Shown here piece after piece: positions 4,588 through 62,782 of a stretch of 64,000 nucleotides of DNA. Positions within the stretch are counted from its first letter, which is position 1. Every line of letters starts with the position of its first letter. Source of the DNA: an uncultured archaeon (GTDB lineage: Archaea; Thermoproteota; EX4484-205; JAAOZP01); NCBI GenBank assembly GCA_938045545.1, contig CALIBN010000007.1, positions 16,073 through 80,072 on the forward strand, given 5' to 3'. The position numbers were made by a program, and so were the translations under genes. Below the pieces are notes generated by a model that did not search any database, was not told the origin of the DNA, and worked only from the letters and a program-made list of their open reading frames with translations.

Positions 4588-5235
4588 ATGTCTGAGGTAA
4601 GTCTACTTACGAAACTTAAGGATGCTATAGTTAACCTGGATTTCGACGGCTCTAAGCATCTAGCGCAGGAGGCCCTTGCGAAAGGAATACCGCCCAACGA
4701 GATCATCACTAAAGCAATAAGCTCCGCCATGGAGGAGGTTGGCAGAAAGTTCGAGGCTTCAGAATACTTTCTGTCAGAGCTGATAGTTGCAGGTGAAATA
4801 GGAAAGGAAATATCGCAAATGTTGCAACCATACATGAAGGACGCGGAAATTAAGAAGATAGGCAAGGTTGTAATAGGAACCGTTAAGGGGGATCTTCACG
4901 ACATCGGGAAGAATATTTTCGGAATGATGCTTGAAGCAGCGGGATTCGAAGTCATAGACTTGGGTAACGATGTTCCGGCTGAAGCTTTCGTAGAGGCTGT
5001 GAAGAACCATAAGCCTGACATCATGGGCATGTCAGCTCTTCTAACTGTTACGATGGTTGAGATGGAGAACGTGATAAAAGAGCTTAAGAAAGCCGGGTTA
5101 CGGGAAAAGGTTAAAGTAATAATAGGCGGGGCTCCGATAACAGAGGAGTATGCCAAGAGGATAGGCGCCGACGGCTATGGTAAGGATGCTGTAGTCGGTG
5201 TAGATATTTGCAAGGCTTGGATAGGCAAGAAGTAA
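4588..5235 (+). CDS. mtaC: Methanol-specific corrinoid protein (B12-binding, MtaC-like)
   Basis: An N-terminal B12-binding-2 helical cap is followed by a Rossmann B12 domain with the DxHxxG cobalamin-ligand motif (GDLHDIGKNIF). Length is 215 aa. It sits immediately upstream of the MtaB homolog. Confidence 0.8.
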   Translation: MSEVSLLTKLKDAIVNLDFDGSKHLAQEALAKGIPPNEIITKAISSAMEEVGRKFEASEYFLSELIVAGEIGKEISQMLQPYMKDAEIKKIGKVVIGTVKGDLHDIGKNIFGMMLEAAGFEVIDLGNDVPAEAFVEAVKNHKPDIMGMSALLTVTMVEMENVIKELKKAGLREKVKVIIGGAPITEEYAKRIGADGYGKDAVVGVDICKAWIGKK

Positions 5236-5271
5236 AAAAAGTAAGCACTGTTAAATCAGAGGGCAAGCGTA

Positions 5272-6639
5272 ATGGTTTTATTCAGTAAGCTAGAGATAGA
5301 AAAGCCTTCTGAATTAATCTTCGGGTCGGCTAAACACCCTTTGAATTATGGTTTCGGGCTTAATGTTGGAAAAGGGGAAGTAATTCCTGAAGTAAAATTT
5401 TTCCCAAGGGTTTTTTCGGATAAAGATCCTGAAGGGTTTAAAACTGAGGTTCAGACTATAACGCGAGATATACTTGACAGGGCTGTTGAGCTCGGCATTC
5501 CATCCCTTCAAATAGAGACTGAGCTGACCTTCATGGAGACTAAGAACCCTAGGCTCGCTGCTGAAATAGCAAGTCTCCAAAAATGGTTGATGGAAAAATA
5601 TTTTGACGAACATGGTATAAAACTCGGCTTCAGGGTTACGGTTGCCGATATAAGGGATTTCCGGGAGGGCTTGAGAACAACCGCAAACTATAATCTCATG
5701 ATGGAAACTTTCGACGCTGTTTCTTCCAACGGTGCAGACGTTCTGTCGATAGAGTCTGAAGGCGGTAAAGACGTTTTTAACCACAGCATAATTAGACAGG
5801 ATATTGAAGGAATAGTCTTTTCAATCCTATTGGCATCTTTGGACATGGGTTTTATTTGGAAGGACATTGTTAACGTTGCAAGGAGAAACGGCTGTATAGC
5901 GGGTGGGGATACTGCTTGCGCTATTGCGAACACGGCGATGAAGCTTGCAGGCGGTGTGAAATCAATGTCCTTGCCTCACACGCTCGCTGCAATAGTGAGA
6001 GCCATGTCGGCAGCCAGGTCCCTCGTCGCTTATGAGCAGGGTGCAACAGGCCCGGGGAAGGACTGCGGCTATGAAAACGTGATTCTGAAAGCAATAACCG
6101 GGTTCCCAATGTCGATGGAGGGTAAGAGTAGTGCTTGCGCGCACTCCAGTCTAATGGGGAATATTGCTTCCGCATGCTGCGATCTCTGGTCTAACGAGCA
6201 GGTTGAAAACCTAATGCTTTTCGGAGGGTCAGCTCCACAGGTTTTCCTGGAAATACTTCACTACGATTGCAAGCTGATGAATAGGGCAATAATGCTTGGG
6301 AAAGCTTTAGAGCTCAGAGACATGCTTGTCTTGTCGGATAAGTATGACGACCCTCAGGCCTTGGTTCTCTCCCCCGATGTGGCTATCGAGGTTGCAAACG
6401 CGATAGTCTCCGAGTATGGTGACTACTATAGGAGAGTTAAGTCTGCATGCCGGAAAATAGTCGAGATACTTGAGAGCTCGTCGCCCCTACGCCTAAGCCA
6501 CGCGGAGGCCCGCTTCCTGTCTCATGTTAAAAACATTATTGATTCTCTTCCGGATGATGGGGAAACGTTTAGAGAGCAGATGTGTAAGACTTTTACCGGG
6601 AAGGTGCCAACCTTCCGGGAGAAGGATTACTGGCCCTAA
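5272..6639 (+). CDS. mtaB: Methanol:corrinoid methyltransferase MtaB
   Basis: Long stretches match my recollection of Methanosarcina MtaB: VAYEQGATGPGKDCGYEN, KAITGFPMSMEGKSSACAHS, MGNIASACCDLWSNE, YDCKLMNRA, LSDKYDDPQA. Length is 455 aa. Confidence 0.8.
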   Translation: MVLFSKLEIEKPSELIFGSAKHPLNYGFGLNVGKGEVIPEVKFFPRVFSDKDPEGFKTEVQTITRDILDRAVELGIPSLQIETELTFMETKNPRLAAEIASLQKWLMEKYFDEHGIKLGFRVTVADIRDFREGLRTTANYNLMMETFDAVSSNGADVLSIESEGGKDVFNHSIIRQDIEGIVFSILLASLDMGFIWKDIVNVARRNGCIAGGDTACAIANTAMKLAGGVKSMSLPHTLAAIVRAMSAARSLVAYEQGATGPGKDCGYENVILKAITGFPMSMEGKSSACAHSSLMGNIASACCDLWSNEQVENLMLFGGSAPQVFLEILHYDCKLMNRAIMLGKALELRDMLVLSDKYDDPQALVLSPDVAIEVANAIVSEYGDYYRRVKSACRKIVEILESSSPLRLSHAEARFLSHVKNIIDSLPDDGETFREQMCKTFTGKVPTFREKDYWP

Positions 6640-8483
6640 TCCAATAAAGGAGCCTTCATAGCTATGGCTTTCATCACTCTTGGGAACATGTCCGTTTTCT
6701 TATGGGGGAATTGTGTTGCATCAATAAATTCGCTTTGAAACCCGTTGATCGTATTTAAATCTATAGCCCTCACTTTCCTGGCCAAGATTTCAGCCTCTTC
6801 CTTGACCTTTCTGGAAAGAAGACTCATTGCTGCACCTTGGCCCGAACCATTTCCTATCTGTACGATCTTGCTTAAAGGAAGCTCAGGGATCATGCCGACT
6901 ATCATCGCAGACCTTGGGTCAATATAGTTTCCAAAGGCTCCTGCAATATATACTTTGGATATCTCGCTCAAGCTTACCCCTCCAATTCTTAGGAGAAGCA
7001 GGCATGCAGTAAATATGGCTGCCTTAGCAAGTTGAAATCTTCTAATGTCTGTCTGCGTTATGCAGATTCTTCGGCCCTCCCTGTTAACCGCTAACACGAA
7101 GGCCTTATCCCCATCGATATTCACAATCCTCGGAGTATTTATGTCGGCAATCCTTCCCTTCTGGTCTAAAACTCCGGCTATAAGCATCCATGCTATCGCG
7201 TCGACAACTCCGGAGCCGCATATTCCCCTCGGATCCGCGTCGCCTATCGTCTTATAGTAAACGTCAAAGTTTTCCACGTTAATCGAAACCGATTCTATCG
7301 CGCCATTCATCCCTCTCATACCGTTGGAAAGCCCAGCTCCTTCAACAGCTGGTCCCGCCGCCGTGGAGGACGCGAGCATCAGGTCCCCCGCTTTCAAGAC
7401 GACTTCACCATTTGTTCCAAGATCTATAAGCAGGGACTTCTCATCCTGCTCATGCATTCCTGAAACAAGTATGTCTGCAACCACGTCTCCACCAACGTAG
7501 CCGCTGATCAAGGGGAAAGTGTAGCCGATCGCAGAATCGTTAACTCTAAGGCCTATTTCTCTAGCCTTGAAGCGAAGGCTAGACCTGAAAGGCGGCACGT
7601 ATGGTGCTGATGCTATCGCCGAAACCTCCGCTCCATATAGGAGGCTGGTCATAACCGTGTTCCCGGCGAAGGATAATTCGTAAACGTCGAATGGAGAGCA
7701 TTTCGCTTCATCAGCCGCATCCTGAATCAATTTGTTTATAGTTGCCACTACTTTGCCTTGAAGTTCCTCTAGGTTCTTGCCTCCTTTCACAGCGTAGGTT
7801 ATTCTAGATATCACGTCGTCACCATACGCTATCTGACCGTTGTAATCCGATTTTACGGAGACGATTCGCCCGGTTTTCAGGCTGATCAGGTAGGCGACAA
7901 CCGTGGTGGTGCCTACGTCTACAGCAACACCGTAAAAATCCTGGTCACGCCGCGGTCTAACATCTAGGATTTCACCATCATGTAGAATCGCCTCCAAGTC
8001 CCATTTTAATTCCCGCAGTTTACCGGGTAGCTTCTTTAAAAGCAGGCCGTCGATGGATTTCGCGTTCAATGCTTGTAGGAGGCGTTCAGCATCCGACCTC
8101 TGGTCGGTGAGCGAGGGAGCATAAATCTTAACGTTTACACTTCTCGTTGCAGGGTAAAACCCGAAATCCTTGACGCGTCCCCATTCCAGTATCTTGCCCC
8201 TGGTCTGCCTTGAGGACTGAGGAACCTTAATGACAACGTCACCAATGATTCGCGCCTGACAGGCCAGTCTGAACGATTTCGACATGCTTCTTACTTCTGC
8301 TTCCATCGAGGTTGGCTCGGTCAACCCGCTGCTGAAAACCTCGACGACGCATTTTTTACAAACCCCGCGCCCTCCACAAACGCTTTCAATGTTAACACCC
8401 GCTTCCTTAAGCACAGTTAACAGGTTCGACCCGTAGGAAGCTTGAACTCTAACGCCTTCAGGCTGAATCGTTACCAGGGGCAT
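6636..8483 (-). CDS. ramA: RACo/RamA-family reductive activator of corrinoid-dependent methyltransferases (N-terminal [2Fe-2S] ferredoxin + ASKHA ATPase domain)
   Basis: The N-terminus carries a plant-type ferredoxin Cys motif (VCGGRGVCKKCVV…C). A large ASKHA-like domain follows (DVGTTTVVAY…; DLGTNGEVVL). Length is 615 aa. It is convergent with mtaB, with a 4-nt stop overlap. Confidence 0.65.
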   Translation of the reverse strand: MPLVTIQPEGVRVQASYGSNLLTVLKEAGVNIESVCGGRGVCKKCVVEVFSSGLTEPTSMEAEVRSMSKSFRLACQARIIGDVVIKVPQSSRQTRGKILEWGRVKDFGFYPATRSVNVKIYAPSLTDQRSDAERLLQALNAKSIDGLLLKKLPGKLRELKWDLEAILHDGEILDVRPRRDQDFYGVAVDVGTTTVVAYLISLKTGRIVSVKSDYNGQIAYGDDVISRITYAVKGGKNLEELQGKVVATINKLIQDAADEAKCSPFDVYELSFAGNTVMTSLLYGAEVSAIASAPYVPPFRSSLRFKAREIGLRVNDSAIGYTFPLISGYVGGDVVADILVSGMHEQDEKSLLIDLGTNGEVVLKAGDLMLASSTAAGPAVEGAGLSNGMRGMNGAIESVSINVENFDVYYKTIGDADPRGICGSGVVDAIAWMLIAGVLDQKGRIADINTPRIVNIDGDKAFVLAVNREGRRICITQTDIRRFQLAKAAIFTACLLLLRIGGVSLSEISKVYIAGAFGNYIDPRSAMIVGMIPELPLSKIVQIGNGSGQGAAMSLLSRKVKEEAEILARKVRAIDLNTINGFQSEFIDATQFPHKKTDMFPRVMKAIAMKAPLLD

Positions 8484-8593
8484 GGTGAAGCTCCAATCAA
8501 ATAGTAAATAAACTTTAAAAAAAGTTTAGCCTTTAACAACGCTGCTTACTGTTCGGCGAAAAATTTTTATTTAATCGCTTTAAACCAGTCCTA

Positions 8594-9709
8594 ATGTTCT
8601 TTAAAGAGGATTGGGCTGAGGCTAAGGAACGGCTCTCAGCCTGGTGGGAAAAAGATGCTTTAGACAGACCAATTATACAAGTTTACGCTCCTCGAAGCAG
8701 CCCAAAGTATGCTTCTGAAGAGGATTTGAAGTTCAACTATGATCACTGGGGGTTTCCCAGAAACATTAAGGATCCTGCCGCTATAAGTGGAAACATAAAG
8801 GGTTTTCGTAGGCAGTGCGCGGAAACATATTACGGGGGGGAAGCCTATCCGAACCTTTGGGTAAACCTGGGCGCCGGTGTTCTCGGGGCATACTTGGGTG
8901 CAGAACCGGTCCTGGAGAGTGAAACAGTATGGTTTGGAGCGCAGAGAAATAATGCGCTTGGGAAAAGCTGGGAGGAGTTGCGCCAATTAGAGTTTGATCA
9001 CAGTAACGAGTGGTGGATATTTACGAAGAGAATAACTGAGGCTGCTTCTGAAACCTTGGCGGGATACAGCATTGTCGGCATGACCGACCTGGGAGGAATA
9101 CTGGACGTCGCCGCCTCGCTGCGAGGCGCCGAAAACCTTATTGTCGACCTTACTAGGAATCCTCGAGATGTTAAATCACTATCTTCGAAAATCATAGACT
9201 ACTGGCACGCCTGTTACGACGAGTTGGACAGGATTATAAGAAGGAGAATAGAGGGTACTTCCGCCTGGATGGGCATATGGTGTCCTGAAAGATGGTACCC
9301 GATACAGTGTGATTTCGCCTTCATGCTTTCTCCGAGGCTTTTCGACGAGTTCGTTCTGCCTCATGTTAAAGAGCAGTGTGAAAGGCTTGACCGGGCGATA
9401 TACCATCTCGACGGCCCTGGGGAAATACCGCATCTAGACTCTCTGCTTAAAGTTGAGAGGCTGGATGGCATCCAGTGGGTACCGGGTGCGGGGGAAGAGC
9501 AACAGGGGAACGACTGTGGATCCCCAAAATGGATGCCTCTTTACAAGAAGATCTTGGAAGCCGGGAAGCTTCTTGTGTTGTACATGCCCAGGGAAAAGGT
9601 GATTCCGATGCTTAAGGCGCTTGGCTCTAAGAAAGTATTAATCCAGACTTTCTGCATCAGTGAAGCAGAAGCTAAAAAGCTGGTGGTTGAGGCTGAAAAC
9701 TCGCTGTGA
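8594..9709 (+). CDS. Uroporphyrinogen decarboxylase (URO-D)-like family protein, possible methylcobamide methyltransferase (MtaA/CmuA-like); distant
   Basis: The N-terminal pattern ERLSAWWEKDALDRPIIQV parallels the URO-D/MtaA (E/D)RLLAAL…DRVPV motif. The 371-aa length fits the TIM-barrel fold. It is divergent from ramA in the mta locus. Confidence 0.4.
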   Translation: MFFKEDWAEAKERLSAWWEKDALDRPIIQVYAPRSSPKYASEEDLKFNYDHWGFPRNIKDPAAISGNIKGFRRQCAETYYGGEAYPNLWVNLGAGVLGAYLGAEPVLESETVWFGAQRNNALGKSWEELRQLEFDHSNEWWIFTKRITEAASETLAGYSIVGMTDLGGILDVAASLRGAENLIVDLTRNPRDVKSLSSKIIDYWHACYDELDRIIRRRIEGTSAWMGIWCPERWYPIQCDFAFMLSPRLFDEFVLPHVKEQCERLDRAIYHLDGPGEIPHLDSLLKVERLDGIQWVPGAGEEQQGNDCGSPKWMPLYKKILEAGKLLVLYMPREKVIPMLKALGSKKVLIQTFCISEAEAKKLVVEAENSL

Positions 9710-9787
9710 GCGTGTGGGCCGACATGAAAAAATGTTTCACACGGTAAGTGGTTCCTTCGAATTTTAAAAGCTTGAAGCAAAGCTTGG

Positions 9788-11590
9788 TTATTTTGCTTTT
9801 ATTTCAGGAGCTGCGCCGAACTGAAGCTCGTATAGCTTAGCATACGCACCACCCTTCTTCATAAGCTCCTCATGAGTCCCCTCCTCAACTATTCTTCCGT
9901 TCTCTAAGAACAATATTCTATGTGCAAGCTTAACTGTGGAAAGCCTGTGGGCAATTATTATGCATGTTCTTCCCTTCATAAGCTTAACCATGGCTTTCTG
10001 GAGGAGCGACTCAGTGTAGGAGTCCAAGCTGCTCGTCGCCTCATCCAGTATGAGGATCCTCGGATCCTTAAGCATGGCTCTTGCGAAGCTTATGAGCTGT
10101 CTTTCCCCGAGCGAAAGGTTTCCCCCTCCGGGGGACACTACTGTCTCATACTTCTGCGGCATCCTGTCTATCAATTCGTCTAAGCCAAGTTCCGAAGCCA
10201 CTCTCTTAACATCTTCATCGGAAGCCTCCGTGTTGCCCAGCCTTATGTTCTCCAGAATAGTTCCGTTAAACAGGACTGGTTCCTGCGGCACCAGAGCCAC
10301 CTGTTTCCTGAGGGATTTAAAGGAGAATTCCTTAACATTATAATCGTCTATAAGAACTTCGCCTGACTTGGGGTCATAAAGCCTCAGTATGAGGTTCGTT
10401 AAGGTTGTTTTACCTGCTCCTGTTGGGCCAACTACAGCAACTATCTCACCCGGATCGACTTGTAGGCTCAACCCTTGGAAAACAGTGTTCCCATCGTAGT
10501 CGAAGTGAACATTCTTCAACTCTATTCTACCGGCTTTTATCTCGATCCATCTCGCTTCTTTAGACTCTACAACACTGGGCTTCACCTGTAGGAAAAGGTA
10601 GACTCTTTCAGCAGCCGCTAAGGCCGCCTGCAACGTGCTGTAGAAGGTTGTTAGAGTGATTATGGGCCTGTAGAACATTTCAGCATATCCGTAGAATGCG
10701 ATTAGAATGCCGATGCTGATTTCCCCGGAGACCACTAGGCTTCCCCCGTAAAGTATCAATATCACATAGGAAAGAGTTCTAACAGCGTCGAGCGAAGGCC
10801 TAATCATCGCGAAAACTATCCTCGCCCTAAGGTTTGTCCTCATCGTTTCAGCGCTAAGCTTGTCGAAAGAAGCGATGTCGACGTTTCTTCTCTCCGCGAA
10901 TGATTGGGAGACCCTTGAACCCGAGACGCTTTGCTCAACGCTGCTAGTCAACTCGCTAAGCTTTTCCCTGCTTTGCCTGTATGCCTGTCTTGTTTTGATT
11001 GCGAAATACCTTGAGAGAAACAGCATTAAAGGCACTACGGTGAGTGTAGCTAGGCTTAGCCCCACGTGTAGGGTGAACATGACGTACAGTGAGCCGAGGA
11101 GTGTTGCCGAGCCTATCATTGCTTCTATCGTTCCCGAGGTTGTTACTTCTCCGATAGAACTTATGTCGTTTATTATAAGTGAAATGATTTTACCGGTTCT
11201 CTCAACGTTAACGTGCGCGATATCCATTTCCTCCATGTGTTTAAAGACGGTGCTTCTCATGCTGTAAAGAAGCCTCTGGTTTATCCTGCCAGTCAAGTTG
11301 CCTCTGGCGAAACCTAAAAACCATCCTCCTGCAGCAATCCCCACCAGCACGAGGACATATTTCATCAAGGCGTCTGGATTACCCTGCATAATGCCTTCGT
11401 CTATCAGAAGCCTGCTAACGTATGGGCTCACTACATTAACCCCTATTGAGGCCAGTGCTACGATCACAAGCATGATTGCCTGGAGCTTCATAGGGGTTAA
11501 CCACCGTAGGAGCCACGCGACGAGCTTTCTGGACGCTATTTCCCTAGGCTTCCCCTCGGCCTCAGCAGCTTGACGGAAATGCCAACCCAT
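9788..11590 (-). CDS. ABC exporter half-transporter (fused permease + ATPase)
   Basis: Six-TM permease domain followed by Walker A GPTGAGKTT, signature LSLGERQ and Walker B ILILDEATSSLD. Length is 600 aa. Confidence 0.85.
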   Translation of the reverse strand: MGWHFRQAAEAEGKPREIASRKLVAWLLRWLTPMKLQAIMLVIVALASIGVNVVSPYVSRLLIDEGIMQGNPDALMKYVLVLVGIAAGGWFLGFARGNLTGRINQRLLYSMRSTVFKHMEEMDIAHVNVERTGKIISLIINDISSIGEVTTSGTIEAMIGSATLLGSLYVMFTLHVGLSLATLTVVPLMLFLSRYFAIKTRQAYRQSREKLSELTSSVEQSVSGSRVSQSFAERRNVDIASFDKLSAETMRTNLRARIVFAMIRPSLDAVRTLSYVILILYGGSLVVSGEISIGILIAFYGYAEMFYRPIITLTTFYSTLQAALAAAERVYLFLQVKPSVVESKEARWIEIKAGRIELKNVHFDYDGNTVFQGLSLQVDPGEIVAVVGPTGAGKTTLTNLILRLYDPKSGEVLIDDYNVKEFSFKSLRKQVALVPQEPVLFNGTILENIRLGNTEASDEDVKRVASELGLDELIDRMPQKYETVVSPGGGNLSLGERQLISFARAMLKDPRILILDEATSSLDSYTESLLQKAMVKLMKGRTCIIIAHRLSTVKLAHRILFLENGRIVEEGTHEELMKKGGAYAKLYELQFGAAPEIKAK

Positions 11591-11591
11591 C

Positions 11592-13352
11592 CTATGGCTT
11601 CACCTCCTGAAAAGCGTACTGTGAAACATACAGCTTAGCGTAGACTCCTCCTTTACTCATGAGTTCCTCATGAGTCCCGTCCTCAACCACCTTGCCGTCT
11701 TCAATAACAATTATTCTTTCGCTGAGTTTAAGCGTTGAAAGCCTCTGAGTGACTATGAAGACGGTCTTGTTCTTAACGAGTTCCCTCAGCGATTCGTATA
11801 TTTCCTTTTCTGTCTCAACATCCACGCTTGAAGTTGAATCGTCCAGAATCAGTATTGAAGGGTTTACGAGGAGGGCTCGGGCAATAGCCAGCCTCTGTCT
11901 CTGCCCTCCTGAAAGAGTAACTCCTCTCTCGCCTATAACAGTATCATATCCTTTCGGAAGGCTGGTTATGAAGTCGTGTATTCTCGCCGCCTTCGCCGCC
12001 CTCTCTATTTCGTCCCGCGTAGCGTCAGGCTTACCGTAAGCAATGTTCTCCCTAATAGTTGTGGGGAATAGGAAAACGTCTTGATGAACTATGCCTATGT
12101 TCTTCCTGAGCGAGCTTATCTTTACTTCTCTAATATCCACGCCATCTATCATGATGCAGCCCTCCTGAGGATCGTAAAACCTTGGAATCAGCTTGATCAC
12201 AGTGCTTTTCCCGGAGCCGGTTGCCCCCACTAAAGCCACTTTCTCCCCTGGCTTAACTGTAAAACTCATCCCCTTAAGTATCGGCTTATCCTTATCGTAG
12301 CCGAACACCACATCCTTAAAACATACTTCTCCTCTAACGTTTTTCAGCTCTATTGCACCAGGCTTCTCCTTAACCTCGGGCTCAGTATCGAGGACTTCAA
12401 ATATTCTTCGCGCTGACACCATTGCCTCCGCGTATCTCGACAATACGAATCCTATCGACATTATCGGCCAGACGAGCATGCCTAGGTACATCGTGAAGGT
12501 GACGAGCTGCCCCAGGCTGATCTCGCCCATAATAGCCTGGAAGCCGCCATACCAGTATACAACTGCAGAGCCGACTCCGATTATCAACCCTAGCGAAGGC
12601 CATGTTAGCGAGCTAAGGAGAACGCTTCTCATGCCTATGCTGAATATTTCCTTGTTTTTCACCTCAAACCTTTTAAACATCTCTTCTTCTGCGCCCAGAG
12701 TCTTCAAAACCTTAAATCCTGAAACGGTTTCCTGAATCATCGCGCTCATCCCGCTTGTCTCCATCCAAATCCTTTCGAACAGGGGTCTTACAAAGCGGTT
12801 GAAAGATAGGGAAACAATGCCTATGAAAGGCGTTATTGCCAGCGCTATTAATGCTAGGCTTAAGTTGGTTGTTAAAAGTATTGTGACGACTATTATCAGA
12901 ATGGCTACGGAGCCTATGATGTTTGGAAGCGCGAAACCGAGTAGTCTACCTATGTTCTCCGTGTCCCTTGTAACCCTGGTTATTATTTGCCCGGAGTCAA
13001 CCCTGTCGTAGAAGCTGTACGATAAATCCTGAAGATGGCGGTAAATGCTTATTCTAATCCTGTAGACTATTCTCTGAGCTAAGGATTCACTTAAATACTC
13101 GTTCAGGAAAGATATCCCACCGGCTAAAAGCGTCAGGACCATTATTGCCGCCGCGTAAAACCATAATTCTGACAATGCTTTTACGATAGTTATGTCGATA
13201 ACCCTCCCTGCAATGATTGGGCTAACTATGTTCACTAAGGCTCCTAGTATGATCATGGTTAATGTTAATGGTAGCAGGGTTTTTTCCTGCCTAATGTATC
13301 CGAGAATTCTCAGGAAGGGATGTCGGCTACTACTGGGCATTTTTGAAACCAC
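11592..13352 (-). CDS. ABC exporter half-transporter (fused permease + ATPase), partner of 9788..11590
   Basis: Walker A GATGSGKST, signature LSGGQRQR and Walker B LILDDSTSSVD. Its start lies 2 nt from the downstream gene, as expected for a heterodimer pair. Confidence 0.85.
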   Translation of the reverse strand: MVSKMPSSSRHPFLRILGYIRQEKTLLPLTLTMIILGALVNIVSPIIAGRVIDITIVKALSELWFYAAAIMVLTLLAGGISFLNEYLSESLAQRIVYRIRISIYRHLQDLSYSFYDRVDSGQIITRVTRDTENIGRLLGFALPNIIGSVAILIIVVTILLTTNLSLALIALAITPFIGIVSLSFNRFVRPLFERIWMETSGMSAMIQETVSGFKVLKTLGAEEEMFKRFEVKNKEIFSIGMRSVLLSSLTWPSLGLIIGVGSAVVYWYGGFQAIMGEISLGQLVTFTMYLGMLVWPIMSIGFVLSRYAEAMVSARRIFEVLDTEPEVKEKPGAIELKNVRGEVCFKDVVFGYDKDKPILKGMSFTVKPGEKVALVGATGSGKSTVIKLIPRFYDPQEGCIMIDGVDIREVKISSLRKNIGIVHQDVFLFPTTIRENIAYGKPDATRDEIERAAKAARIHDFITSLPKGYDTVIGERGVTLSGGQRQRLAIARALLVNPSILILDDSTSSVDVETEKEIYESLRELVKNKTVFIVTQRLSTLKLSERIIVIEDGKVVEDGTHEELMSKGGVYAKLYVSQYAFQEVKP

Positions 13353-13452
13353 TTCGTGTAAAACTATTTAAAAGTTACTGAGACGCTGGTTACGTGCACT
13401 ATGTTTTGATTGAAGGTGTGCCAGTGACGCATGACGAGGGTTTTAAAGGATT

Positions 13453-13968
13453 TTAAGTCACCGTTTCAAGAAGCACCCTGCTCCGCTCATCGACTTTATT
13501 AATGTCCTCAACTATGTAAACATTATCATTAATATCGATAATCACGATCTTCTCCCCAGATCTGCTTACGCTTCTCCTTCCCCTTGTTCTGAACTCCCTC
13601 AATCCTCTATCCGTCTCAACATGCCATATGAACTCGTCTCCACTTGTCTCCAACTTCCTAACTCTTCGGATCACAGGCATGAAGTAGAGCTTCCCTAAAA
13701 CTTCTTCAAGAGTTCTCCGCGAAAAACCGTCCATCTTCCTGTAGTCCTCTACTACGCATATCTCGTTTCCCTGAGCATCGGTGAATATCAGGAAATACGG
13801 GTTGCTTATGGGGAAAGGCTTCTTAGGAATCACCTCGAGAAATTCCCCGTTGCTTCCCACTATCTTCACCGTGTTCGCCCTATCCCCCTTGAAGACCCTT
13901 ATCTGCTCCGCGTTCACGACCCATGTCTTGCTCAGAAAGCTTTCAAGCAACGGCAACCTGTTTCTCAC
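13453..13968 (-). CDS. DUF1854-like small cytoplasmic protein associated with ABC exporters
   Basis: A 171-aa soluble protein encoded between ABC exporter genes. The assignment to DUF1854 rests on recollection of this ABC-neighbourhood family. It overlaps the 3' end of the upstream ORF by 26 nt, so the true start may be a later Met. Confidence 0.35.
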   Translation of the reverse strand: MRNRLPLLESFLSKTWVVNAEQIRVFKGDRANTVKIVGSNGEFLEVIPKKPFPISNPYFLIFTDAQGNEICVVEDYRKMDGFSRRTLEEVLGKLYFMPVIRRVRKLETSGDEFIWHVETDRGLREFRTRGRRSVSRSGEKIVIIDINDNVYIVEDINKVDERSRVLLETVT

Positions 13969-16234
13969 CCTCCGTAAACTGCGCCCTATATATTTTAGCG
14001 TATAACCCGTTCAGCCTTAAAAGCTCGTCATGGGTCCCGATTTCAACGATCCTGCCCTTATCCATCACCACTATCTTATTCGATCTTTGAAGGGTTGAGA
14101 GCCTATGTGCAATCACTATCGTTGTTCTCTCCTTAGAAATATTGTCTAAGGCCTGCTGTATCTGCCTCTCTGCCAACGTGTCCACCGAAGAAGTCGCCTC
14201 GTCCATTATTAGGATCTTGGGCTCAAGGATTATTGCCCTAGCTATAGCGATCCTCTGCCTCTCTCCTCCTGAAAGCCTAGATCCCCTCTCTCCAACAGGT
14301 GAATCATACGCTAAGGGGAGGTTCATTATTGTCTCATGAATATTCGCAGCCTTCGCAGCCGCTATCACCTTCTTCAAATCCACCTTCTCAAGACCGTATG
14401 TTATGTTGAACAACACGGAGTTGTCGAATAGAAACGGGTCTTGAGCGACTATCCCTATGCTCTTCCTCAATCTTTCCAGCTTGATTTTCCTGATGTCGAC
14501 ACCGTCTATAAGAATCCTGCCCTCGTTCACGTCGTAAAACCTTAACAGTAGTTTAGTCAGAGTCGTCTTCCCTGAGCCGCTTTGCCCGACTATTCCAACC
14601 ATCTCTCCTTTCCTGATTTCAAGGTTTATGTTTTTCAAAACAGGGATGAAGGGTTCATACCCGAAGGTAACATTTTCGAACTTTATGTCCCCCATTATCT
14701 CGAAATCCTTAGCGTCAGGAGCGTCTTTCACAGCAGGGTCAATCCTCAGTATTTCAAGGATTCGTTCTCCAGAAGTTATTGCCTGCTGCAATGGTTCGGC
14801 AAGGTTTGTCACTGTTTGAATCGGCCCGTAGAACATCCACATGTAGCTAACGAACGCTACAAGCGTGCCTGGAGATATGTCTCCGCTGATGACGTGTAAT
14901 CCGCCGACATACCAAACTATCGCAGCTCCTGCGGAGCTTACGAAGCCCAAGATTGGGAAAAAGCCAAGATGTAGCCTCGTTATGTCAAGATTCGCCCTCA
15001 CCACTTCATTCATTCTTTCAGTAAACCTATTAACTTCACCTTTTTCCCTAGCAAAAGACTTCACAACAGATATTCCAGGTATCGTGTCTACGAGTAGAGA
15101 ACTAACGTCCGCCCATTTTCTCCAGGCTTTATGGTAGACAAGCCTAGCTTTAGACCTGAATCGTGGGAGTCCAAGCATTATGAGCGGTAGAGGCAATAGT
15201 GCGAAAAGAGACAACCTATAGTCCATTGTGAATATTATGATGCCTATTCCAATTATTGAGAGAACGTTAATTATCAGGCTTGGTATTCCCCACACTAAGA
15301 ACCATTGGACTCTCCCAATATCATCAGTAATCCTTGAAATAACTCTGCCAGTGCTCATCTTGTCGTAGAAAGACATTGAGAGCTCCTGCACGTGGCTATA
15401 CAGGTCTCTCCTCATTTCATACACCAGTTTCTGGCTTAGCAGTGAAAGCGAATAGTTTTGAAGTATTCCAAGCAGAGTGTTCAACGCATAAATGGTTATT
15501 AAGAGGATAGTCAGGTTTAGCAGCGTGGCCTCCTGTTTCTGAGCGGCTATCTGGTCTATGAGTGTCCTAAGCAGGGAAGGAGGAACTAGGTTTAAGCCTG
15601 TTATAACGACGGATAGGGTTAAACCAGTTAAGACCAGGTACCAGTGAGGCTTGAGATAGGACATGAGCCATATTATGGCGTTCCTCTTACTCTTCCCATT
15701 GTTTTCAAGGTAGAGTTTGAATTCTATTTCCCGGGGGTCCCTATACTGGAGAAGCGCGTTTATCACGCCAGCCGCATGCCTGAACTCGCCTACTTTATCT
15801 CTTGAAAACCTTGCCAAGGAAAACTCTTTACCATCAACAATTAGGATGAGCTCGCTGTTTCCAAGATAATCGTTAAAGACTACCTGCGTAGCCTTCTTGA
15901 TTTCCAGTTCTACAATTTTATTCCCATATTCCACGTCTATCTTCAACACCCGTTCGTTCGTAACTATTAAGAGGTATGTTGAGAAACTACCGTCTTCACC
16001 AAGGTCGCCTTTCGCAACTGATAAAACCATCTCCCCTGGCTTAAGCGATTTTTCAATCAGCATTCTTTCTTTCTCGCTCAGCTTTTCCAGCAGGATTCTA
16101 TGGGCTTCGTCATCCCCCAACGTCAGAAGCGTGCACCGGAACGATTCTCTATTTAAGGCTTTTTGATTTACTGATGTAAAAAGTTGTTTGGGGACTACAT
16201 ATAGAATCTTTATATAACGCTGATGGATAACCAC
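13943..16234 (-). CDS. ABC exporter half-transporter with N-terminal ~190-aa PH-like (bPH) extension
   Basis: C-terminal Walker A GQSGSGKTT, signature LSGGERQR and Walker B LIMDEATSSVD follow a six-TM domain. The N-terminal segment GEMVLSVAKGD…YLLIVTNERVLKIDVEY resembles bacterial PH-like domains. Confidence 0.8.
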   Translation of the reverse strand: MVIHQRYIKILYVVPKQLFTSVNQKALNRESFRCTLLTLGDDEAHRILLEKLSEKERMLIEKSLKPGEMVLSVAKGDLGEDGSFSTYLLIVTNERVLKIDVEYGNKIVELEIKKATQVVFNDYLGNSELILIVDGKEFSLARFSRDKVGEFRHAAGVINALLQYRDPREIEFKLYLENNGKSKRNAIIWLMSYLKPHWYLVLTGLTLSVVITGLNLVPPSLLRTLIDQIAAQKQEATLLNLTILLITIYALNTLLGILQNYSLSLLSQKLVYEMRRDLYSHVQELSMSFYDKMSTGRVISRITDDIGRVQWFLVWGIPSLIINVLSIIGIGIIIFTMDYRLSLFALLPLPLIMLGLPRFRSKARLVYHKAWRKWADVSSLLVDTIPGISVVKSFAREKGEVNRFTERMNEVVRANLDITRLHLGFFPILGFVSSAGAAIVWYVGGLHVISGDISPGTLVAFVSYMWMFYGPIQTVTNLAEPLQQAITSGERILEILRIDPAVKDAPDAKDFEIMGDIKFENVTFGYEPFIPVLKNINLEIRKGEMVGIVGQSGSGKTTLTKLLLRFYDVNEGRILIDGVDIRKIKLERLRKSIGIVAQDPFLFDNSVLFNITYGLEKVDLKKVIAAAKAANIHETIMNLPLAYDSPVGERGSRLSGGERQRIAIARAIILEPKILIMDEATSSVDTLAERQIQQALDNISKERTTIVIAHRLSTLQRSNKIVVMDKGRIVEIGTHDELLRLNGLYAKIYRAQFTEGEKQVAVA
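16206..16218 (+). promoter_or_regulatory. Putative TATA box for the MscS gene
   Basis: tctttatataacg lies about 26–36 nt upstream of the ATG at 16242. Confidence 0.3.
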
Positions 16235-27768: not shown

Positions 27769-28563
27769 TTGCTGAAAATAATTGTTCTCATAAAACAGGT
27801 TCCGGATATCGAGAGGGTAAGGTTCGACGTAGAAACAGGTAGAATAGATAGGAGTTCAGCGCCGGCAGAGATAAACCCGTTTGACCTGAACGCTCTCGAG
27901 GCGGCTGTACAGATTAAGGAGAAGGTTGGAGGTTTCATCACTGCCATAAGCATGGGTCCGATGCAGGCCCTAAGCTCTCTGAGGGACGCTATGGCTAGGG
28001 GTGCTGACGACGCGATCCTTCTTGAAGACAGGAGGTTCGCCGGAGCCGATACTTTGGCTACTTCCAACACTCTCGCTGCTGCTATTAGAAAGATCGGGTC
28101 CTACGATATTATTCTCTGCGGGGAGAAGACTGTCGACGGTGACACCGGGCAGGTTGGCGCAGAGGTTGCGGAGCTTCTTGAAATCCCTCATGTCTACTAT
28201 GTTTCAAGGATTGTTAACGTTTCTGAAAACTCTATTACCGTCGTCTCCGAGATGGAGGATGCTTCCTACGTTTTGGAATCTGGTTTCCCGGTTCTGGTCA
28301 GCGTCACGAGGGATGTCAACAAGCCTAGGCTGCCAACATTGAAGAGCAAGATGAAGGCTATGAAAAGCGAGGTTAAAATATGGCACGCTGAGGACTTGAG
28401 CGGTTTTCTAGACCCGGATAAGGCTGGTTACGCTGGCTCTCCCACATGGGTTCACAAGGTTGTTGTTCAAAGGGAGAAAACCAGGCAGGTTAGGATATAC
28501 AGACAGGTTGAAGAGGGGATTCAAGAGTTGATGCGCCTCTTAGAGTCTAAAGGGTTGATTTAA
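27769..28563 (+). CDS. etfB: Electron transfer flavoprotein beta subunit (EtfB/FixA-like)
   Basis: N-terminus KIIVLIKQVPD is typical of EtfB. Length is 264 aa. TTG start. Confidence 0.85.
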   Translation: MLKIIVLIKQVPDIERVRFDVETGRIDRSSAPAEINPFDLNALEAAVQIKEKVGGFITAISMGPMQALSSLRDAMARGADDAILLEDRRFAGADTLATSNTLAAAIRKIGSYDIILCGEKTVDGDTGQVGAEVAELLEIPHVYYVSRIVNVSENSITVVSEMEDASYVLESGFPVLVSVTRDVNKPRLPTLKSKMKAMKSEVKIWHAEDLSGFLDPDKAGYAGSPTWVHKVVVQREKTRQVRIYRQVEEGIQELMRLLESKGLI

Positions 28564-28564
28564 A

Positions 28565-29569
28565 ATGGAGGGTAGAGGCTCAGGTGGAAAAGTACTCGTG
28601 GTCGCGGAGCTTAGGGGGGAGGCAATACACCCTGTTACTTTCGAGCTTCTCGGAAAAGGCAGGGAGATAGTGGAGCATACTGGTGGGGAACTCTGGAGCG
28701 TGGTTTTCGGCAGCAACGTGGATAAGGCTAAGGCTTCAGAGCTAATATATTACGGTGCAGACCGGGTTTTCCTCTTCAACGACCCTGTTTTTTCCGGTTT
28801 AAACACGATGGTTTACGCACACAATCTCACTAGGCTTTGTAGGGAGGAGAAGCCGGACGTAATCCTGATAGGGGCAACATGCTTCGGAAGGTCTCTGGGT
28901 CCAAGGGTTGCGGCAGCGCTTAAAACGGGTTTAACAGCAGACTGCATAGATTTAAGGATGGACGAGAACGGTGAGCTGATACAGATCAGGCCAGCATTCG
29001 TGGGGAACATCTTAGCGTACATTAAGACTAAGACTAAGCCCGTGATGTCTACTGTGCGGTACAAGGTTATGAGGGCGAGGGAGAAGGATGAGAGTAGAAG
29101 CGGCCTGATTATCGAAAAAACGGCTGAGAAACCTTTCCAAGACAGGATCAGGCTTATTGGGGAGGCAATACCCAAGAAGCTTAACATAGCGGATGCTGAA
29201 ATCATAGTTGCAGGCGGCAGGGGGCTGGGGTCTGCGGAAGGATTCAAGCTACTGGGGGAGCTCGCCAGCCTGCTTGGAGGAGTTGTGGGCTCAAGCAGGC
29301 CGCCTGTGGACGACGGGTGGATAAGGAAGGAGCATCAAGTCGGCTATAGCGGGAGCATAGTTAAGCCTAGGCTGTATATTGCTTGCGGAATCTCCGGCTC
29401 GCCGCAACACCTGTTCGGCATGAAGGATGCCGAAACAATAATAGCCATTAACAGCGACCCTTCGGCACCCATATTCAGGGTTGCTGACTACGGTATTGTG
29501 GGAGACCTTTATCAGATCATACCCCTTATGGTAAAAGAGATAAAAGCCAGGAGGGGCGGCGTAGGTTGA
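28565..29569 (+). CDS. etfA: Electron transfer flavoprotein alpha subunit (EtfA/FixB-like); no N-terminal ferredoxin domain
   Basis: C-terminal FAD-binding region with IAINSDPSAPIFRVADYGIVGDLYQIIP, typical of EtfA. Length is 334 aa. Confidence 0.85.
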   Translation: MEGRGSGGKVLVVAELRGEAIHPVTFELLGKGREIVEHTGGELWSVVFGSNVDKAKASELIYYGADRVFLFNDPVFSGLNTMVYAHNLTRLCREEKPDVILIGATCFGRSLGPRVAAALKTGLTADCIDLRMDENGELIQIRPAFVGNILAYIKTKTKPVMSTVRYKVMRAREKDESRSGLIIEKTAEKPFQDRIRLIGEAIPKKLNIADAEIIVAGGRGLGSAEGFKLLGELASLLGGVVGSSRPPVDDGWIRKEHQVGYSGSIVKPRLYIACGISGSPQHLFGMKDAETIIAINSDPSAPIFRVADYGIVGDLYQIIPLMVKEIKARRGGVG

Positions 29570-57107: not shown

Positions 57108-58084
57108 CTATATTGCGGCTCGTAGTCTTTTCCACTCGTCTATGAAAGCCTGAACATTCTCCCATGGCCACTGCTCGCGGATAGAGGGTACTGCGTGAAG
57201 AATAAAGCCTCTTCGGCCGAAAACTTGGAAAGCATTCTGAACTGCTTTACGCACAGTCTCCAGCTTCCCCTGGCCTATTTGGATGGGTGCGCTAACACCC
57301 CCCAGATACACTTTCTACCGCCAAGCTTCTAAGCCACGATCCTCATGTCTTGGTTTCCAAGAGCCGGCTCGATGCCGTCATAAGCGTCGAAAGGGAGTTC
57401 AGCCAAATAGTCTAATATGGGCATCACGCCTGTGCAAACCGTGTAGCTGCAAACCCTGCCGGCGGAATGTGCCAGCTCAGCCTCCTCTCGCAACCTTTCC
57501 CCCAAAAAGGTTTGTAGCTGCCTAGGGCTCCAGAAATCCGTGGTCTCGTAGAAGCCGTTGCGGCGCACAATGTCCACACCATTTTCGACCAAGGCTCTAG
57601 CCTTCACCATTCTTTTCTGAAAGGCTTCAACCTCCCGCCTTCCTGGAGGCATGTGCACATAAGCCCAGCGCTTAACATCCTCCATGTTTTCAAGCCAAGG
57701 CTTAACGAAGCGGGAAACGTAAGTCTGAGAGTAGCGGTATTTCCATGCCATGTGGCCAATCAGGGGTTCTCCTTACAGCGGCGGTAAGAGGCACGGCGGG
57801 CGTCGTGATCCCTCGTGAAGAATGGGATAGGGCTCACCCGGTGTCTCCCAAACCCTAAAAGATACTTCAGGATGCTGGCCCGCTGGAACATCCAAGGGTA
57901 TAACAGGGTCGATGCCTAGCTCCTCTGCTTGTAACCGGAGTGCTTGCTCACCATAGGGATCTTGCTGTTGCCAGTCCCTATACTTACCAGGCTCAACCTG
58001 GGGCTCGCTGAAAAAAGTTGAGAGCGACACATAGTCCACATCCCCTCGGCGCATAGCTACTATCACGCGTTCACGAGAGTTCAT
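57108..58084 (-). pseudogene. Disrupted URO-D-family (MtaA-like) methyltransferase pseudogene in three ORF fragments
   Basis: The N-terminal fragment 57773..58084 (SRERVIVAMRRGDVDYVS…), middle fragment 57329..57751 (…YDGIEPALGNQDMRIVA) and C-terminal fragment 57108..57311 are colinear with the intact paralog 61635..62732. They are separated by frame changes and a stop. Confidence 0.55.
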
Positions 58085-60312: not shown

Positions 60313-60380
60313 GCAGGAATATAGATACCTGATTAGGTCTAGAAGAGAGGCATTATATATGCACTTCTAAATACTCCTTA

Positions 60381-61634: not shown

Positions 61635-62732
61635 TTACGTATATTCTCCGTATTTTCTGATCAGCTTTATGTATTCTTGAAATGCGCTGAAAGAAACATC
61701 AGGCGGCACACTGTGGTCTGAACATGCTATGTATCCCCCGCCTTTTTTTGCGACGGGTATCTTGCGGGATATTTCAACCTCAATCTCCTTGGGGTTGCCA
61801 ATCTTCCTTGCATCGAGGTTTCCAATGAAGGAAAGGGTCTTCCCATATTTCTCTTTCAGCTCGACAACATCCATTCCCGCCTTAACTTCCATCGGCTGTA
61901 AGGCCGTGAAACCAGCTTCGATCAATTTCGGGATCAACAGGTTCACGTTGCCGTCAGTATGCAATATGGTCGGCATATTCCTCACCCTATAGGCAGAGGT
62001 CATTTGAGCATGCGCCGGCTTCACGAACTCGTCGTAAACCTTCGGGGAGAAGAACGGCCCCTTGTTGTAACCTATATCGTCCCAAACCCACAGTCCGTCA
62101 ACTCCTAGCTTAAGATAGGTTTCCACGATCCTTGAGAAATACTGGCCCAAATGTCTGAAAATATACTTAACGAGGTCCGGATCCCTGTGGATCGCGACTA
62201 ACACCTTGTCCACGCTTTCCCCAAGTATATGTCTAGTTGCTTCAAAAGGGCCTATTATCGAGCAGAATACGGCGTAATGCTCCTTCAACCTCCTTATGCC
62301 TTCCTCAAGCTCCCTCTTAAACGGGTATCTGCTGCTTGAAACCCTGATTGGCAGCTCAGGGTCTAACAGGGGCTCAAGCTTCTCTTTAAAATCCTCAATC
62401 GTCGAGACCGATGGTGGTCCAGCGGGATGAGGCGTACCGCTCCTACCGATCCAAGCCTTCACCCTCACGCCCCAGGAATCTATGTATGTTCGAAACTTAT
62501 CATTCTCTTCGAGTATGATGGTGTCATACTTAGGACTTACATCCGGACCTATTAGGTAGATATCGTAGCCAAAATAATCATGTAAGGAAACTCCTCTAGG
62601 CAGGCCCTCGCTATACCATCTCTCCAGGGTTTCGCCCCATGGGAAATCTATGAAGGGAACCCTGTCTGCCTCCTCGTGGTTTAACACTCTTAACACCCGT
62701 TCCCTCGAATCCATGTTTTTCAAAAATCCCAC
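61635..62732 (-). CDS. URO-D-family methylcobamide methyltransferase (MtaA/MtbA-like)
   Basis: N-terminal SRERVLRVLNHEEADRVPFID matches the URO-D/MtaA opening. Length is 365 aa. It is the intact paralog of the pseudogene at 57108..58084. Confidence 0.7.
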   Translation of the reverse strand: MGFLKNMDSRERVLRVLNHEEADRVPFIDFPWGETLERWYSEGLPRGVSLHDYFGYDIYLIGPDVSPKYDTIILEENDKFRTYIDSWGVRVKAWIGRSGTPHPAGPPSVSTIEDFKEKLEPLLDPELPIRVSSSRYPFKRELEEGIRRLKEHYAVFCSIIGPFEATRHILGESVDKVLVAIHRDPDLVKYIFRHLGQYFSRIVETYLKLGVDGLWVWDDIGYNKGPFFSPKVYDEFVKPAHAQMTSAYRVRNMPTILHTDGNVNLLIPKLIEAGFTALQPMEVKAGMDVVELKEKYGKTLSFIGNLDARKIGNPKEIEVEISRKIPVAKKGGGYIACSDHSVPPDVSFSAFQEYIKLIRKYGEYT

Positions 62733-62782
62733 TTATTACTTAAATCTATCCCCTAAGACAAAAAGGGATGAGCCACATGTTC

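Follow-up and report, generated by a model that had tools for sequence, protein, structure and literature searches.

The methanol:corrinoid methyltransferase module of a Brockarchaeota contig and its divergent UroD-superfamily neighbor

Positions 4588-9709 of a 64-kb stretch of archaeal DNA (contig CALIBN010000007.1; the whole stretch is referred to as the window) carry the methanol:corrinoid methyltransferase module already published for Brockarchaeota, and the locus is no new kind of system. The module comprises the corrinoid protein MtaC, the methyltransferase MtaB, an activase of the RACo type, and a 371-aa protein of the uroporphyrinogen decarboxylase (UroD) superfamily. The best explanation of the locus, and on its sequence a very probable one, is that MtaB loads MtaC with methyl groups from methanol, that the activase reactivates MtaC, and that the methyl group is handed on to an acceptor other than coenzyme M (CoM). 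The four open reading frames (ORFs) have exactly the boundaries that a preliminary description, made from the DNA letters alone, had assigned to them. These genes and the intergenic region among them are as follows.

4588..5235, forward strand: mtaC, corrinoid (B12-binding) methyl carrier, 215 aa, with Pfam domains B12-binding_2 and B12-binding
5272..6639, forward strand: mtaB, methanol:corrinoid methyltransferase (first methyltransferase, MT1), 455 aa, assigned by Pfam MtaB, a match to 2I2X, and zinc ligands
6636..8483, reverse strand: RACo-type ATP-dependent reductive activase of corrinoid proteins, 615 aa, assigned by Pfam, 3ZYY, and a Cys motif
8484..8593, no strand: intergenic region from which the activase gene and the UroD-like ORF diverge, each with a TATA-like element of its own, recognized by conservation in relatives
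8594..9709, forward strand: divergent UroD-superfamily protein, 371 aa, with His271-x-Asp273, candidate second methyltransferase, assigned by AlphaFold 2 (AF2), Foldseek, and hhalign

Sequence comparison identifies the window as Brockarchaeota DNA. When MtaB was used as the query in a scan of one genome per species, it showed 97% protein identity to the Candidatus Brockarchaeota metagenome-assembled genome (MAG) GD2_1 and 91% to Brockarchaeota DRTY-6.80, followed by related Thermoproteota/Nitrososphaerota MAGs at 78-85%, a Bathyarchaeota MAG at 53%, and Verrucomicrobiota, Planctomycetota, and Bacteroidetes at about 41-43%. The first 14.6 kb of the window are fully collinear with the GD2_1 contig at 96.4% DNA identity. 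De Anda and coworkers described Brockarchaeota as non-methanogenic anaerobic methylotrophs and glycan degraders of hot springs, reported extensive glycan degradation as well as MtaB and MttB with colocalized corrinoid proteins, and found methyl-CoM reductase (MCR) neither in 15 Brockarchaeota MAGs nor in their source metagenomes (De Anda et al. 2021, Nat Commun 12:2404; PMC8065059). The lineage also lacks the tetrahydromethanopterin (H4MPT) methyl branch and carbon monoxide dehydrogenase/acetyl-CoA synthase (CODH/ACS), and it was stated to lack MtaA, for which 'an undescribed protein' was invoked (PMC8065059); this gap was restated in 2024 (PMC11264602).

The orthologous contigs of GD2_1 and DRTY-6.80 are both listed in Supplementary Data 9 of that study, and the DRTY-6.80 contig has the order COG0407 - COG3894 - mtaB - COG5012, as in the window (PMC8065059). 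COG3894, labeled there as 'uncharacterized metal-binding protein', is the activase and COG0407 is URO-D; these neighbors appear only in the table and are undiscussed in the text (PMC8065059). The preliminary description had assigned the locus to an archaeon that is non-methanogenic or an atypical methylotroph and whose methyl acceptor is unknown, and it had cited Brockarchaeota as a precedent for such modules without MCR. The window itself proves to be from Brockarchaeota, for which neither MCR nor a recognized MtaA has been published (PMC8065059). That interpretation was right, yet it was not new because mtaB with mtaC, glycan degradation, and the absence of MCR had been reported by De Anda et al. 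2021.

The assignment of MtaB is based on family models, structure, and metal ligands. The protein matches the Pfam family MtaB (PF12176) with 582.6 bits against a gathering threshold of 25 (E 7.5e-175) over residues 4-453 of 455, and the extensive mtaB similarity that had been noted for 5272..6639 thus covers nearly the full length of the protein. M. barkeri MtaB (2I2X) is matched with E 8e-127 and 55%-level similarity. The zinc ligands of the M. barkeri enzyme, which we take to be Glu164, Cys220, and Cys269 (Hagemeier et al. 2006 numbering), align with E161, C216, and C265, and all three ligands are kept. The score against the NCBIfam methanogen equivalog NF040651 is 560.6 bits, under the cut-off of 720, and MtaB belongs to a separate, non-methanogen branch. 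The spacer between mtaC and mtaB is only 36 nt long and has GAGGG ahead of the mtaB ATG, which suggests that mtaB is probably co-transcribed with mtaC.

MtaC has a B12-binding_2 cap domain (E 4e-16) and a B12-binding Rossmann domain (E 2e-30) in Pfam. The DxHxxG motif noted earlier is found at residues 102-107 and is part of a full cobalamin signature (D102-x-H104-x-x-G107, S149-x-L151, G180-G181), so that the protein has the domains and the DxHxxG, SxL, and GG motifs of an MtaC/MtgC-type corrinoid protein. Its top NCBIfam matches are MtgC/TIGR02370-type corrinoid proteins, all under their cut-offs (197 for TIGR02370, slightly below the cut-off of 215). A conserved element resembling a transcription factor B recognition element (BRE) and TATA box, GCGAAAGATTTATCA, lies about 28 nt upstream of mtaC.

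The activase gene is convergent with mtaB, and the ends of the two genes overlap by 4 nt. Its product contains the Pfam domains Fer2, RACo_linker, Raco_middle, and RACo_C_ter (the C-terminal ASKHA domain), all above cut-off, and aligns over its full length with RACo of Carboxydothermus hydrogenoformans (3ZYY; E 2e-106). A plant-type [2Fe-2S] motif is formed by Cys36/42/45/75, and no 4Fe-4S (Fer4) domain was found by Pfam. The RamA model TIGR04270 is matched by the ASKHA core alone, with 137 bits against a cut-off of 500, and the NCBIfam model AcsV with 469, below its cut-off of 800. The N-terminal [2Fe-2S] domain, the lack of a C-terminal 4Fe-4S domain, and the full-length match to 3ZYY agree with the earlier classification of the activase as RACo rather than RamA type. 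There is an archaeal precedent for a RACo-like 2Fe-2S activase in MtoD (PMC8630106).

The activase gene and the UroD-like ORF diverge from the intergenic region at 8484..8593. The sequence GCGAAAAAyTTTTAT, located about 25-30 nt upstream of the start of the UroD-like ORF, is conserved in all relatives, and GTAAATAAryTTTAAA is conserved on the activase side; both TATA-like elements are putative promoters. A regulatory motif common to the promoters of mtaC and the UroD-like ORF was considered and rejected, as the two have only the generic archaeal BRE/TATA-like GCGAAA..TTTAT in common and give no evidence of co-regulation.

In the first step of the proposed mechanism, the Glu/Cys/Cys zinc site of MtaB would activate methanol and methylate Co(I) of MtaC, so that CH3-Co(III)-MtaC forms; this step is suggested by the 55%-level similarity to the crystallized M. 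barkeri enzyme and by the conserved ligands. In the second step, MtaC that has been accidentally oxidized to Co(II) would be re-reduced by the RACo-type activase with an electron from the [2Fe-2S] cluster and at the expense of ATP, as argued by the full-length RACo homology and the archaeal precedent of MtoD. Confidence is high that MtaB methylates Co(I)-MtaC from methanol and that the RACo-type enzyme re-reduces Co(II)-MtaC, given the homology, ligands, and gene order from which both roles are predicted. In the third step, the methyl group would leave MtaC for an acceptor other than CoM because the lineage lacks MCR. Confidence that the acceptor is not CoM is moderate and is based on this lineage-level absence together with the lack of a His-Cys-Cys UroD protein in the window.

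The window contains no recognizable MtaA-type or pterin-type second methyltransferase (MT2), and none of mcrABG or mtrA-H is found among its ORFs. The earlier remark that no mcr or mtr gene is in view thus stands for the window ORFs but not for the lineage, as stand-alone mtrH and mtrA homologues are listed in supplementary tables for Brockarchaeota genomes, including mtrH in GD2_1 and DRTY-6.80 (PMC8065059). It is plausible that these homologues are methyl-corrinoid:pterin methyltransferases. By analogy with MtoA, the stand-alone MtrH homologues are candidates for unloading MtaC, as are UroD-like proteins, and for the transfer of methyl to a pterin MtrH would be at least as good a candidate.

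It is extremely improbable that the organism is an ordinary methylotrophic methanogen with its mcr and mtr genes elsewhere in the genome. The window spans only 64 kb, and the 55%-level similarity of MtaB to the Methanosarcina enzyme would suit a methanogen. However, the window is nearly identical to Brockarchaeota MAGs, the published screen of 15 MAGs and the source metagenomes found no Brockarchaeota mcr (PMC8065059), the activase is of the RACo and not the RamA type, and the window has no MtaA-type His-Cys-Cys methylase. The methanogen interpretation was rejected on taxonomy and literature.

The mtaC-mtaB pairs of Verrucomicrobiota have on their flanks an AraC regulator together with a His-Ser-Cys-Gly URO-D protein (L010, positions 6080-10672; L-numbers denote the loci of relatives that were compared with the window), a CobW-type metallochaperone (L021, 7317-10401), or GH2 and GHL6 glycosidases (L024, 754-9389; GH, glycoside hydrolase). 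The picture of bacterial mtaB loci as glycan loci is mixed: GH2 and GHL6 genes lie upstream in L024 and AraC regulators occur in several, while other bacterial mtaB loci contain peptidases, PKD proteins, or no Pfam matches. The bacterial groups with MtaB relatives are glycan degraders. Because of this, and because some mtaB genes are preceded by AraC regulators or glycoside hydrolases, there are hints that methanol released from methylated glycans may be the natural substrate of MtaB, with patchy support from the gene neighborhoods.

The 371-aa protein is more difficult to place. Its match to Pfam URO-D (E 0.021, 14.3 bits) is below the cut-off of 23.9, an NCBIfam search gave no match even at E 1, so that the protein falls outside TIGR01463 (MtaA/CmuA), and PDB searches with phmmer and hmmsearch profiles gave chance matches only (E above 1). 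Homologues of the protein number more than 1,800, and neither Pfam nor NCBIfam has a model for the family. An AF2 model built on 53 homologues (pLDDT 96.5, pTM 0.93) has a UroD-type distorted TIM-barrel fold according to Foldseek, in which M. mazei MtaA (4AY8) is the top match (E 1.4e-8, TM 0.58-0.62) and structures of HemE decarboxylase are next (E 4e-7 to 7e-5). The structural scores of the model do not separate an MtaA-like from a decarboxylase-like protein. An hhalign comparison of the family with UroD paralogues from the window and related loci gave a probability of 95.1% (E 3.2e-8, 177 columns) and aligned the motifs S-P-x-x-F-x-E-F-x-x-P and H-x-D-G with their counterparts in the paralogues (H-x-[C/D]-G in the case of the latter). 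The model and profile comparisons indicate a genuine, deeply divergent member of the UroD superfamily. Thus, the 'URO-D-like' label of the preliminary description fails at every sequence-model threshold but is recovered by AF2 with Foldseek and by hhalign, and it does not extend to a CoM-methylating MtaA.

His271-Leu-Asp273-Gly of the 371-aa protein aligns with His-Ser/Cys-Cys-Gly of the MtaA-like paralogues in L010, L015, and L111, and His-x-Asp-Gly is likewise found in the window paralogue at 61635-62732 and in the URO-D genes downstream of mtaCB in L004 and L009. Cys353, a candidate third ligand, is conserved in less than 90% of family members, and L025 lacks it. The family also has about a dozen Trp residues with little or no variation. 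Among UroD-superfamily enzymes, S-methyltransferases have a His-Cys-Cys zinc site, whereas carboxylates replace one Cys or both in O-methyltransferases (Kountz and Balskus, PMC10418091). By this rule, the 371-aa protein would be of the oxygen type (His/Asp) and not a CoM methylase, since it has His-x-Asp where the MtaA-like paralogues have His-x-Cys; such an oxygen-type site would fit an organism without MCR. A bona fide MtaA was rejected for the same replacement and for the lack of any sequence-model match.

The gene order of relatives connects this protein with the module. The mtaB gene, the activase, and the 371-aa ORF form a stable unit in L001-L003, L005-L007, L023, L033-L037, and L040, and the last two accompany mtaB in three or more distinct flank contexts. 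In L007, the four genes are kept between different flanks, an H+-pyrophosphatase (H+-PPase) and an FG-GAP protein. In L004, the activase is lost from this position, and mtaC-mtaB-ORF-URO-D-URO-D lie on one strand and adjoin a GH30 gene. An unrelated archaeon (L009) and a Verrucomicrobium (L010) likewise have UroD-superfamily genes after mtaCB. The 371-aa protein equals or exceeds MtaB in conservation in most comparisons (for example, 90-91% versus 83-85% in L003 and L005).

The position of mtaC is less constant. It is missing upstream of mtaB in the Brockarchaeota-like contigs L003, L005, L034-L037, and L040, and in the contigs without it mtaB carries a conserved TATA-like element of its own, ATATTTAAAAA; in L006 (5925-8001), about 2 kb with small ORFs is inserted between the two genes. 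De Anda and coworkers stated that the corrinoid genes and mtaB are in every case colocalized (PMC8065059), whereas several related contigs here have no upstream mtaC. The mtaB gene itself looks damaged in some close relatives: its first 513 nt are missing in L023 (8001-8834) and L033 (7211-8044), a local frameshift with a TAA is found in L034 (6695-8043), and 153 nt are deleted in L036 (6614-7804). The activase and the 371-aa ORF are intact in all four. The damage may be gene decay or assembly error, and an artefact is possible for L034 and L036.

The weakest step of the proposed mechanism is the best guess at the role of the 371-aa protein: it would be another corrinoid-dependent methyltransferase beside MtaB, using the same MtaC and activase, and would work either as an O-demethylase-like loader with a different methylated substrate or as an unloader whose acceptor is not a thiol. 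The chance that it is a corrinoid-dependent methyltransferase, in whichever direction, falls somewhat short of even. As an unloader, it would be the 'missing' MT2 that transfers methyl from CH3-MtaC to an acceptor without a thiol, for example a pterin or some other O or N nucleophile. The ORF sits where MtaA-like genes adjoin mtaCB in L009 and L010, stays with mtaB through rearrangements, and has MtaA 4AY8 as the top structural match of its product, and the literature requires an undescribed MT2 (PMC8065059; PMC11264602). However, Foldseek scores MtaA and HemE decarboxylases almost alike, the His-Cys-Cys site typical of thiol methylases has been replaced, and the known methyl-corrinoid:folate or H4MPT methyltransferases are pterin-binding or MtrH-type proteins and not UroD-type (PMC13391211; PMC8630106). 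MtrH homologues are also present in Brockarchaeota genomes, the ORF and activase are intact where mtaB looks damaged, and most family members have no corrinoid neighbor. A role as the missing MT2 is decidedly unlikely on this balance.

The wider family was surveyed with a metagenome scan that used the family alignment and found 415 relatives, of which 80 loci were kept, about 70 of them from outside Brockarchaeota. In Ignisphaera-like organisms, Thermofilaceae, and other archaea, the family gene lies among housekeeping genes, often near a major facilitator superfamily (MFS) transporter, with no corrinoid gene nearby. MFS genes adjoin the 371-aa homologues in the archaeal loci L028, L030, and L032. 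The bacterial branch of the family (Planctomycetota, Verrucomicrobia, Anaerolineales, Armatimonadota, and Caldicoprobacterales) sits in sugar-utilization loci. Examples are a locus with an AraC regulator, a sugar ATP-binding cassette (ABC) transporter, and GH3; one with a GFO/MocA oxidoreductase and a 3-keto-disaccharide hydrolase; one with GH32 and a sulfatase; and an Anaerolineales cluster with the order [URO-D][B12 corrinoid protein][unknown][two ABC permeases][family member] ... [GH2].

The unrelated loci L115 (1427-8092) and L102 (5014-12951) each contain a beta-galactosidase (GH2 or GH42), sugar/peptide ABC components, a family member, a B12 corrinoid protein, and URO-D, with the order [GH42][solute-binding protein][family member][corrinoid protein][URO-D] in L102. 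Both look like corrinoid methyltransferase sets inside sugar-utilization clusters. A family member and a URO-D gene lie in tandem on one strand, 3 nt apart, in L099 and L100, and a URO-D paralogue occurs within 10 kb of the family member in 9 of the 80 loci. L111 has several URO-D genes adjoining ACS/CoFeSP genes (CoFeSP, corrinoid iron-sulfur protein) and a RACo. Among the roughly 70 scanned loci from outside Brockarchaeota, partners related to corrinoids were limited to L102, L111, L099, and L100. In L025 (Phycisphaeraceae), the family member is paired with PhyH and lies 3 kb from mtaC-mtaB and a DUF1638-RACo fusion. On the Planctomycete chromosome CP087563.1 (L113, 1-15122), the unit [PhyH dioxygenase][URO-D][AraC] recurs in tandem at least five times, and one of these units holds a family member that overlaps the PhyH gene by 4 nt. 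Throughout, the 371-aa family is linked to carbohydrates; a recurring minority of loci is also linked to corrinoids, and another subset to PhyH.

These surroundings bear on whether the 371-aa protein could be an O-demethylase-like MT1 that loads MtaC from O-methyl sugars or methoxylated aromatics of glycan breakdown, so that the module would take methanol as well as methyl ethers. Such a loader would account for the His-x-Asp metal site, as carboxylates replace Cys in UroD-superfamily O-methyltransferases (PMC10418091), for the near-invariant Trp residues, which resemble those of sugar-binding sites, for the association of the family with GH42, GH2, GH3, GH32, sugar ABC transporters, and AraC regulators, and for the sets of family member, corrinoid protein, and URO-D in L102 and L115. 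It would also account for the retention of the ORF alongside mtaC and the activase in relatives whose mtaB is truncated. However, most family loci have no corrinoid protein, it is hard to see where the PhyH coupling in Planctomycetes would fit into a corrinoid scheme, and Trp richness is a weak indicator; the O-demethylase role is unlikely.

It is quite possible that the 371-aa protein is unrelated to methyl transfer and is instead a carbohydrate-related enzyme with a UroD fold, for example a decarboxylase or a sugar-modifying enzyme, that neighbors the activase by chance. This would fit a family that is widespread without corrinoid neighbors in Thermoproteota and glycan-degrading bacteria and is coupled to PhyH dioxygenases, an ORF that has its own promoter-like element divergent from the activase, and a window that is itself a glycan-degradation region. 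A chance neighbor does not explain why the adjacency is kept in L004 and L007 despite different flanks, why three independent links to corrinoid proteins or mtaCB exist outside Brockarchaeota (L025, L102, and L115), or why URO-D paralogues occur within 10 kb in 9 of 80 loci.

The broadest form of the corrinoid-dependent reading is that the family of more than 1,800 members is an unrecognized UroD clade of Thermoproteota and glycan-degrading bacteria composed of His/Asp corrinoid-dependent methyltransferases, whose Brockarchaeota member would share MtaC and the activase with MtaB as a second methyltransferase or an O-methyl-sugar demethylase. This proposal is doubtful. Several points weigh against it and against the reading of the module as a whole. 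About 65 of the roughly 70 metagenome loci outside Brockarchaeota are without a corrinoid protein, MtaB, or activase within 7-10 kb, and the same absence is seen in 8 of 11 contexts that were looked up individually. The translational coupling to PhyH in AraC-regulated units of Planctomycetes points to a corrinoid-independent, sugar-related function. The family has no invariant Cys, and adjacency that is conserved within one phylum could be inherited rather than selected. Brockarchaeota are known from MAGs alone, and because MtaB scores below the NCBI methanogen equivalog cut-off, its substrate identity is one that we infer.

The 371-aa gene and the activase beside mtaB bear on the statement that MtaA is missing, and the literature to 2024 discusses neither of them. 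The function of the 371-aa protein, once shown, would close a gap in the pathway or reveal anaerobic removal of methyl ethers from sugars, and it would provide a function for more than 1,000 uncharacterized proteins in sugar-utilization loci. If true, a role as MT2 or as O-methyl-sugar demethylase would tie the methyl-transfer module to its glycan-degrading neighborhood.

The description of that neighborhood as glycan-degrading is borne out by genes for GH106-like, GH2 beta-mannosidase-like, BNR sialidase-like, CBM96, YdjC, and esterase proteins. Two further URO-D paralogues had been noted downstream, one intact and one decayed, and this is what was found.

57108..58084, reverse strand: URO-D-like pseudogene, one frame with in-frame TAA at 57773-57775, TAG at 57329-57331, and TAG at 57275-57277
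61635..62732, reverse strand: intact URO-D paralogue of the His-Thr-Asp-Gly type (Pfam URO-D, E 4.5e-21)

The nearest NCBIfam models of the intact paralogue are MtaA/CmuA-type, far under their cut-offs. Directly upstream of it is an MFS transporter gene (62783-63970, reverse strand), and an ArsR/DUF7347 regulator (59464-60312) lies near the pair. This layout (59464-63970, reverse strand) is reminiscent, by analogy, of the transporter-plus-UroD-methyltransferase layout of the Mto cluster. The frame at 57108-58084 has three in-frame stops and no frameshift, and it looks like a recent pseudogene or possibly reflects sequencing error. Reading its TAG codons as pyrrolysine was rejected, as one of the stops is TAA and TAG terminates 14 of the 40 window ORFs. 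Further along the DRTY-6.80 contig, there is a COG0407 gene of 978 nt, the same length as this frame, in a different neighborhood (PMC8065059).

Other parts of the window contain several distinct gene blocks. Three consecutive MsbA/HlyB-like fused ABC exporters (9788-16234, reverse strand) are found beside the module in most relatives too; the last (763 aa) has a bacterial PH-like domain at its N-terminus and is matched best by the model 'cyanophycin metabolism-associated ABC transporter'. At 27769-30930 (forward strand), the beta and alpha subunits of an electron transfer flavoprotein (ETF) precede an FAD-linked oxidase in an arrangement like that of ETF-dependent lactate/glycolate dehydrogenases; a GH106-like gene and an amidohydrolase border the group. 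A 1,505-aa protein with M28 peptidase and FtsX-like permease domains is encoded together with a 639-aa ORF without a Pfam match at 49565-56001 (forward strand), and just past the latter, on the opposite strand, is a 349-aa ORF (56004-57053) that also has no Pfam match. The same M28/FtsX block is listed for DRTY-6.80 in a supplementary table (PMC8065059). No Rfam families and no tRNAs were found in the window, and a scan for sigma-70 promoters and terminators, which is irrelevant for an archaeon, showed no enrichment.

Among known systems, the Brockarchaeota system is the same one, with the same genes in the same lineage: mtaB with a colocalized corrinoid protein, no MCR, and a glycan-degrading genome (PMC8065059). 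The MtaB-MtaC/MtaA/RamA system of Methanosarcina (2I2X, 4AY7/4AY8) is alike in the fold family and zinc ligands of MtaB, the B12 motifs of MtaC, and the ASKHA-type ATP-dependent core of the activase. It differs in that a His-Cys-Cys MtaA is missing from the module here, the activase carries a 2Fe-2S domain at its N-terminus in place of the C-terminal 2x[4Fe-4S] of RamA, and the 215-aa MtaC is nearer to MtgC/TIGR02370-type proteins than to methanogen MtaC models. The lineage also has no MCR to consume methyl-CoM.

In acetogens, MtaA is probably a pterin-binding-type protein. It has a mass of 29.7 kDa and transfers methyl to tetrahydrofolate (PMC13391211). The MtaA-MtaB-MtaC system of Acetobacterium, Eubacterium, and Moorella with its activating enzyme (PMC13391211) resembles the module here as a non-methanogenic methanol system with a RACo/OdmC-type activase and an acceptor other than CoM. 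Unlike the acetogens, the module has no protein like acetogen MtaA and Brockarchaeota have no CODH/ACS. MtgB, an MT1 specific to Bathyarchaeia with a length of about 300 aa (PMC10989822), was also weighed as a relative.

The Mto O-demethylase system of Methermicoccus shengliensis consists of a UroD-type MT1, a corrinoid protein, MtoD as the 2Fe-2S activase, and an MFS transporter; the part of MT2 is taken by a stand-alone MtrH homologue, which methylates a pterin (Kurth et al. 2021; PMC8630106). It shares with the system here the character of an archaeal corrinoid system with a 2Fe-2S RACo-like activase, a UroD-superfamily protein, a corrinoid protein, and an MFS transporter. However, MT1 here is MtaB, with methanol as substrate, divergence is far greater in the UroD-like protein than in MtoB, and the window contains no MtrH gene. 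The activase has the full-length domain architecture of RACo from C. hydrogenoformans (3ZYY)/AcsV, whose client is the CoFeSP of the Wood-Ljungdahl pathway, whereas the clients here must be MtaC-type proteins because no CoFeSP is expected.

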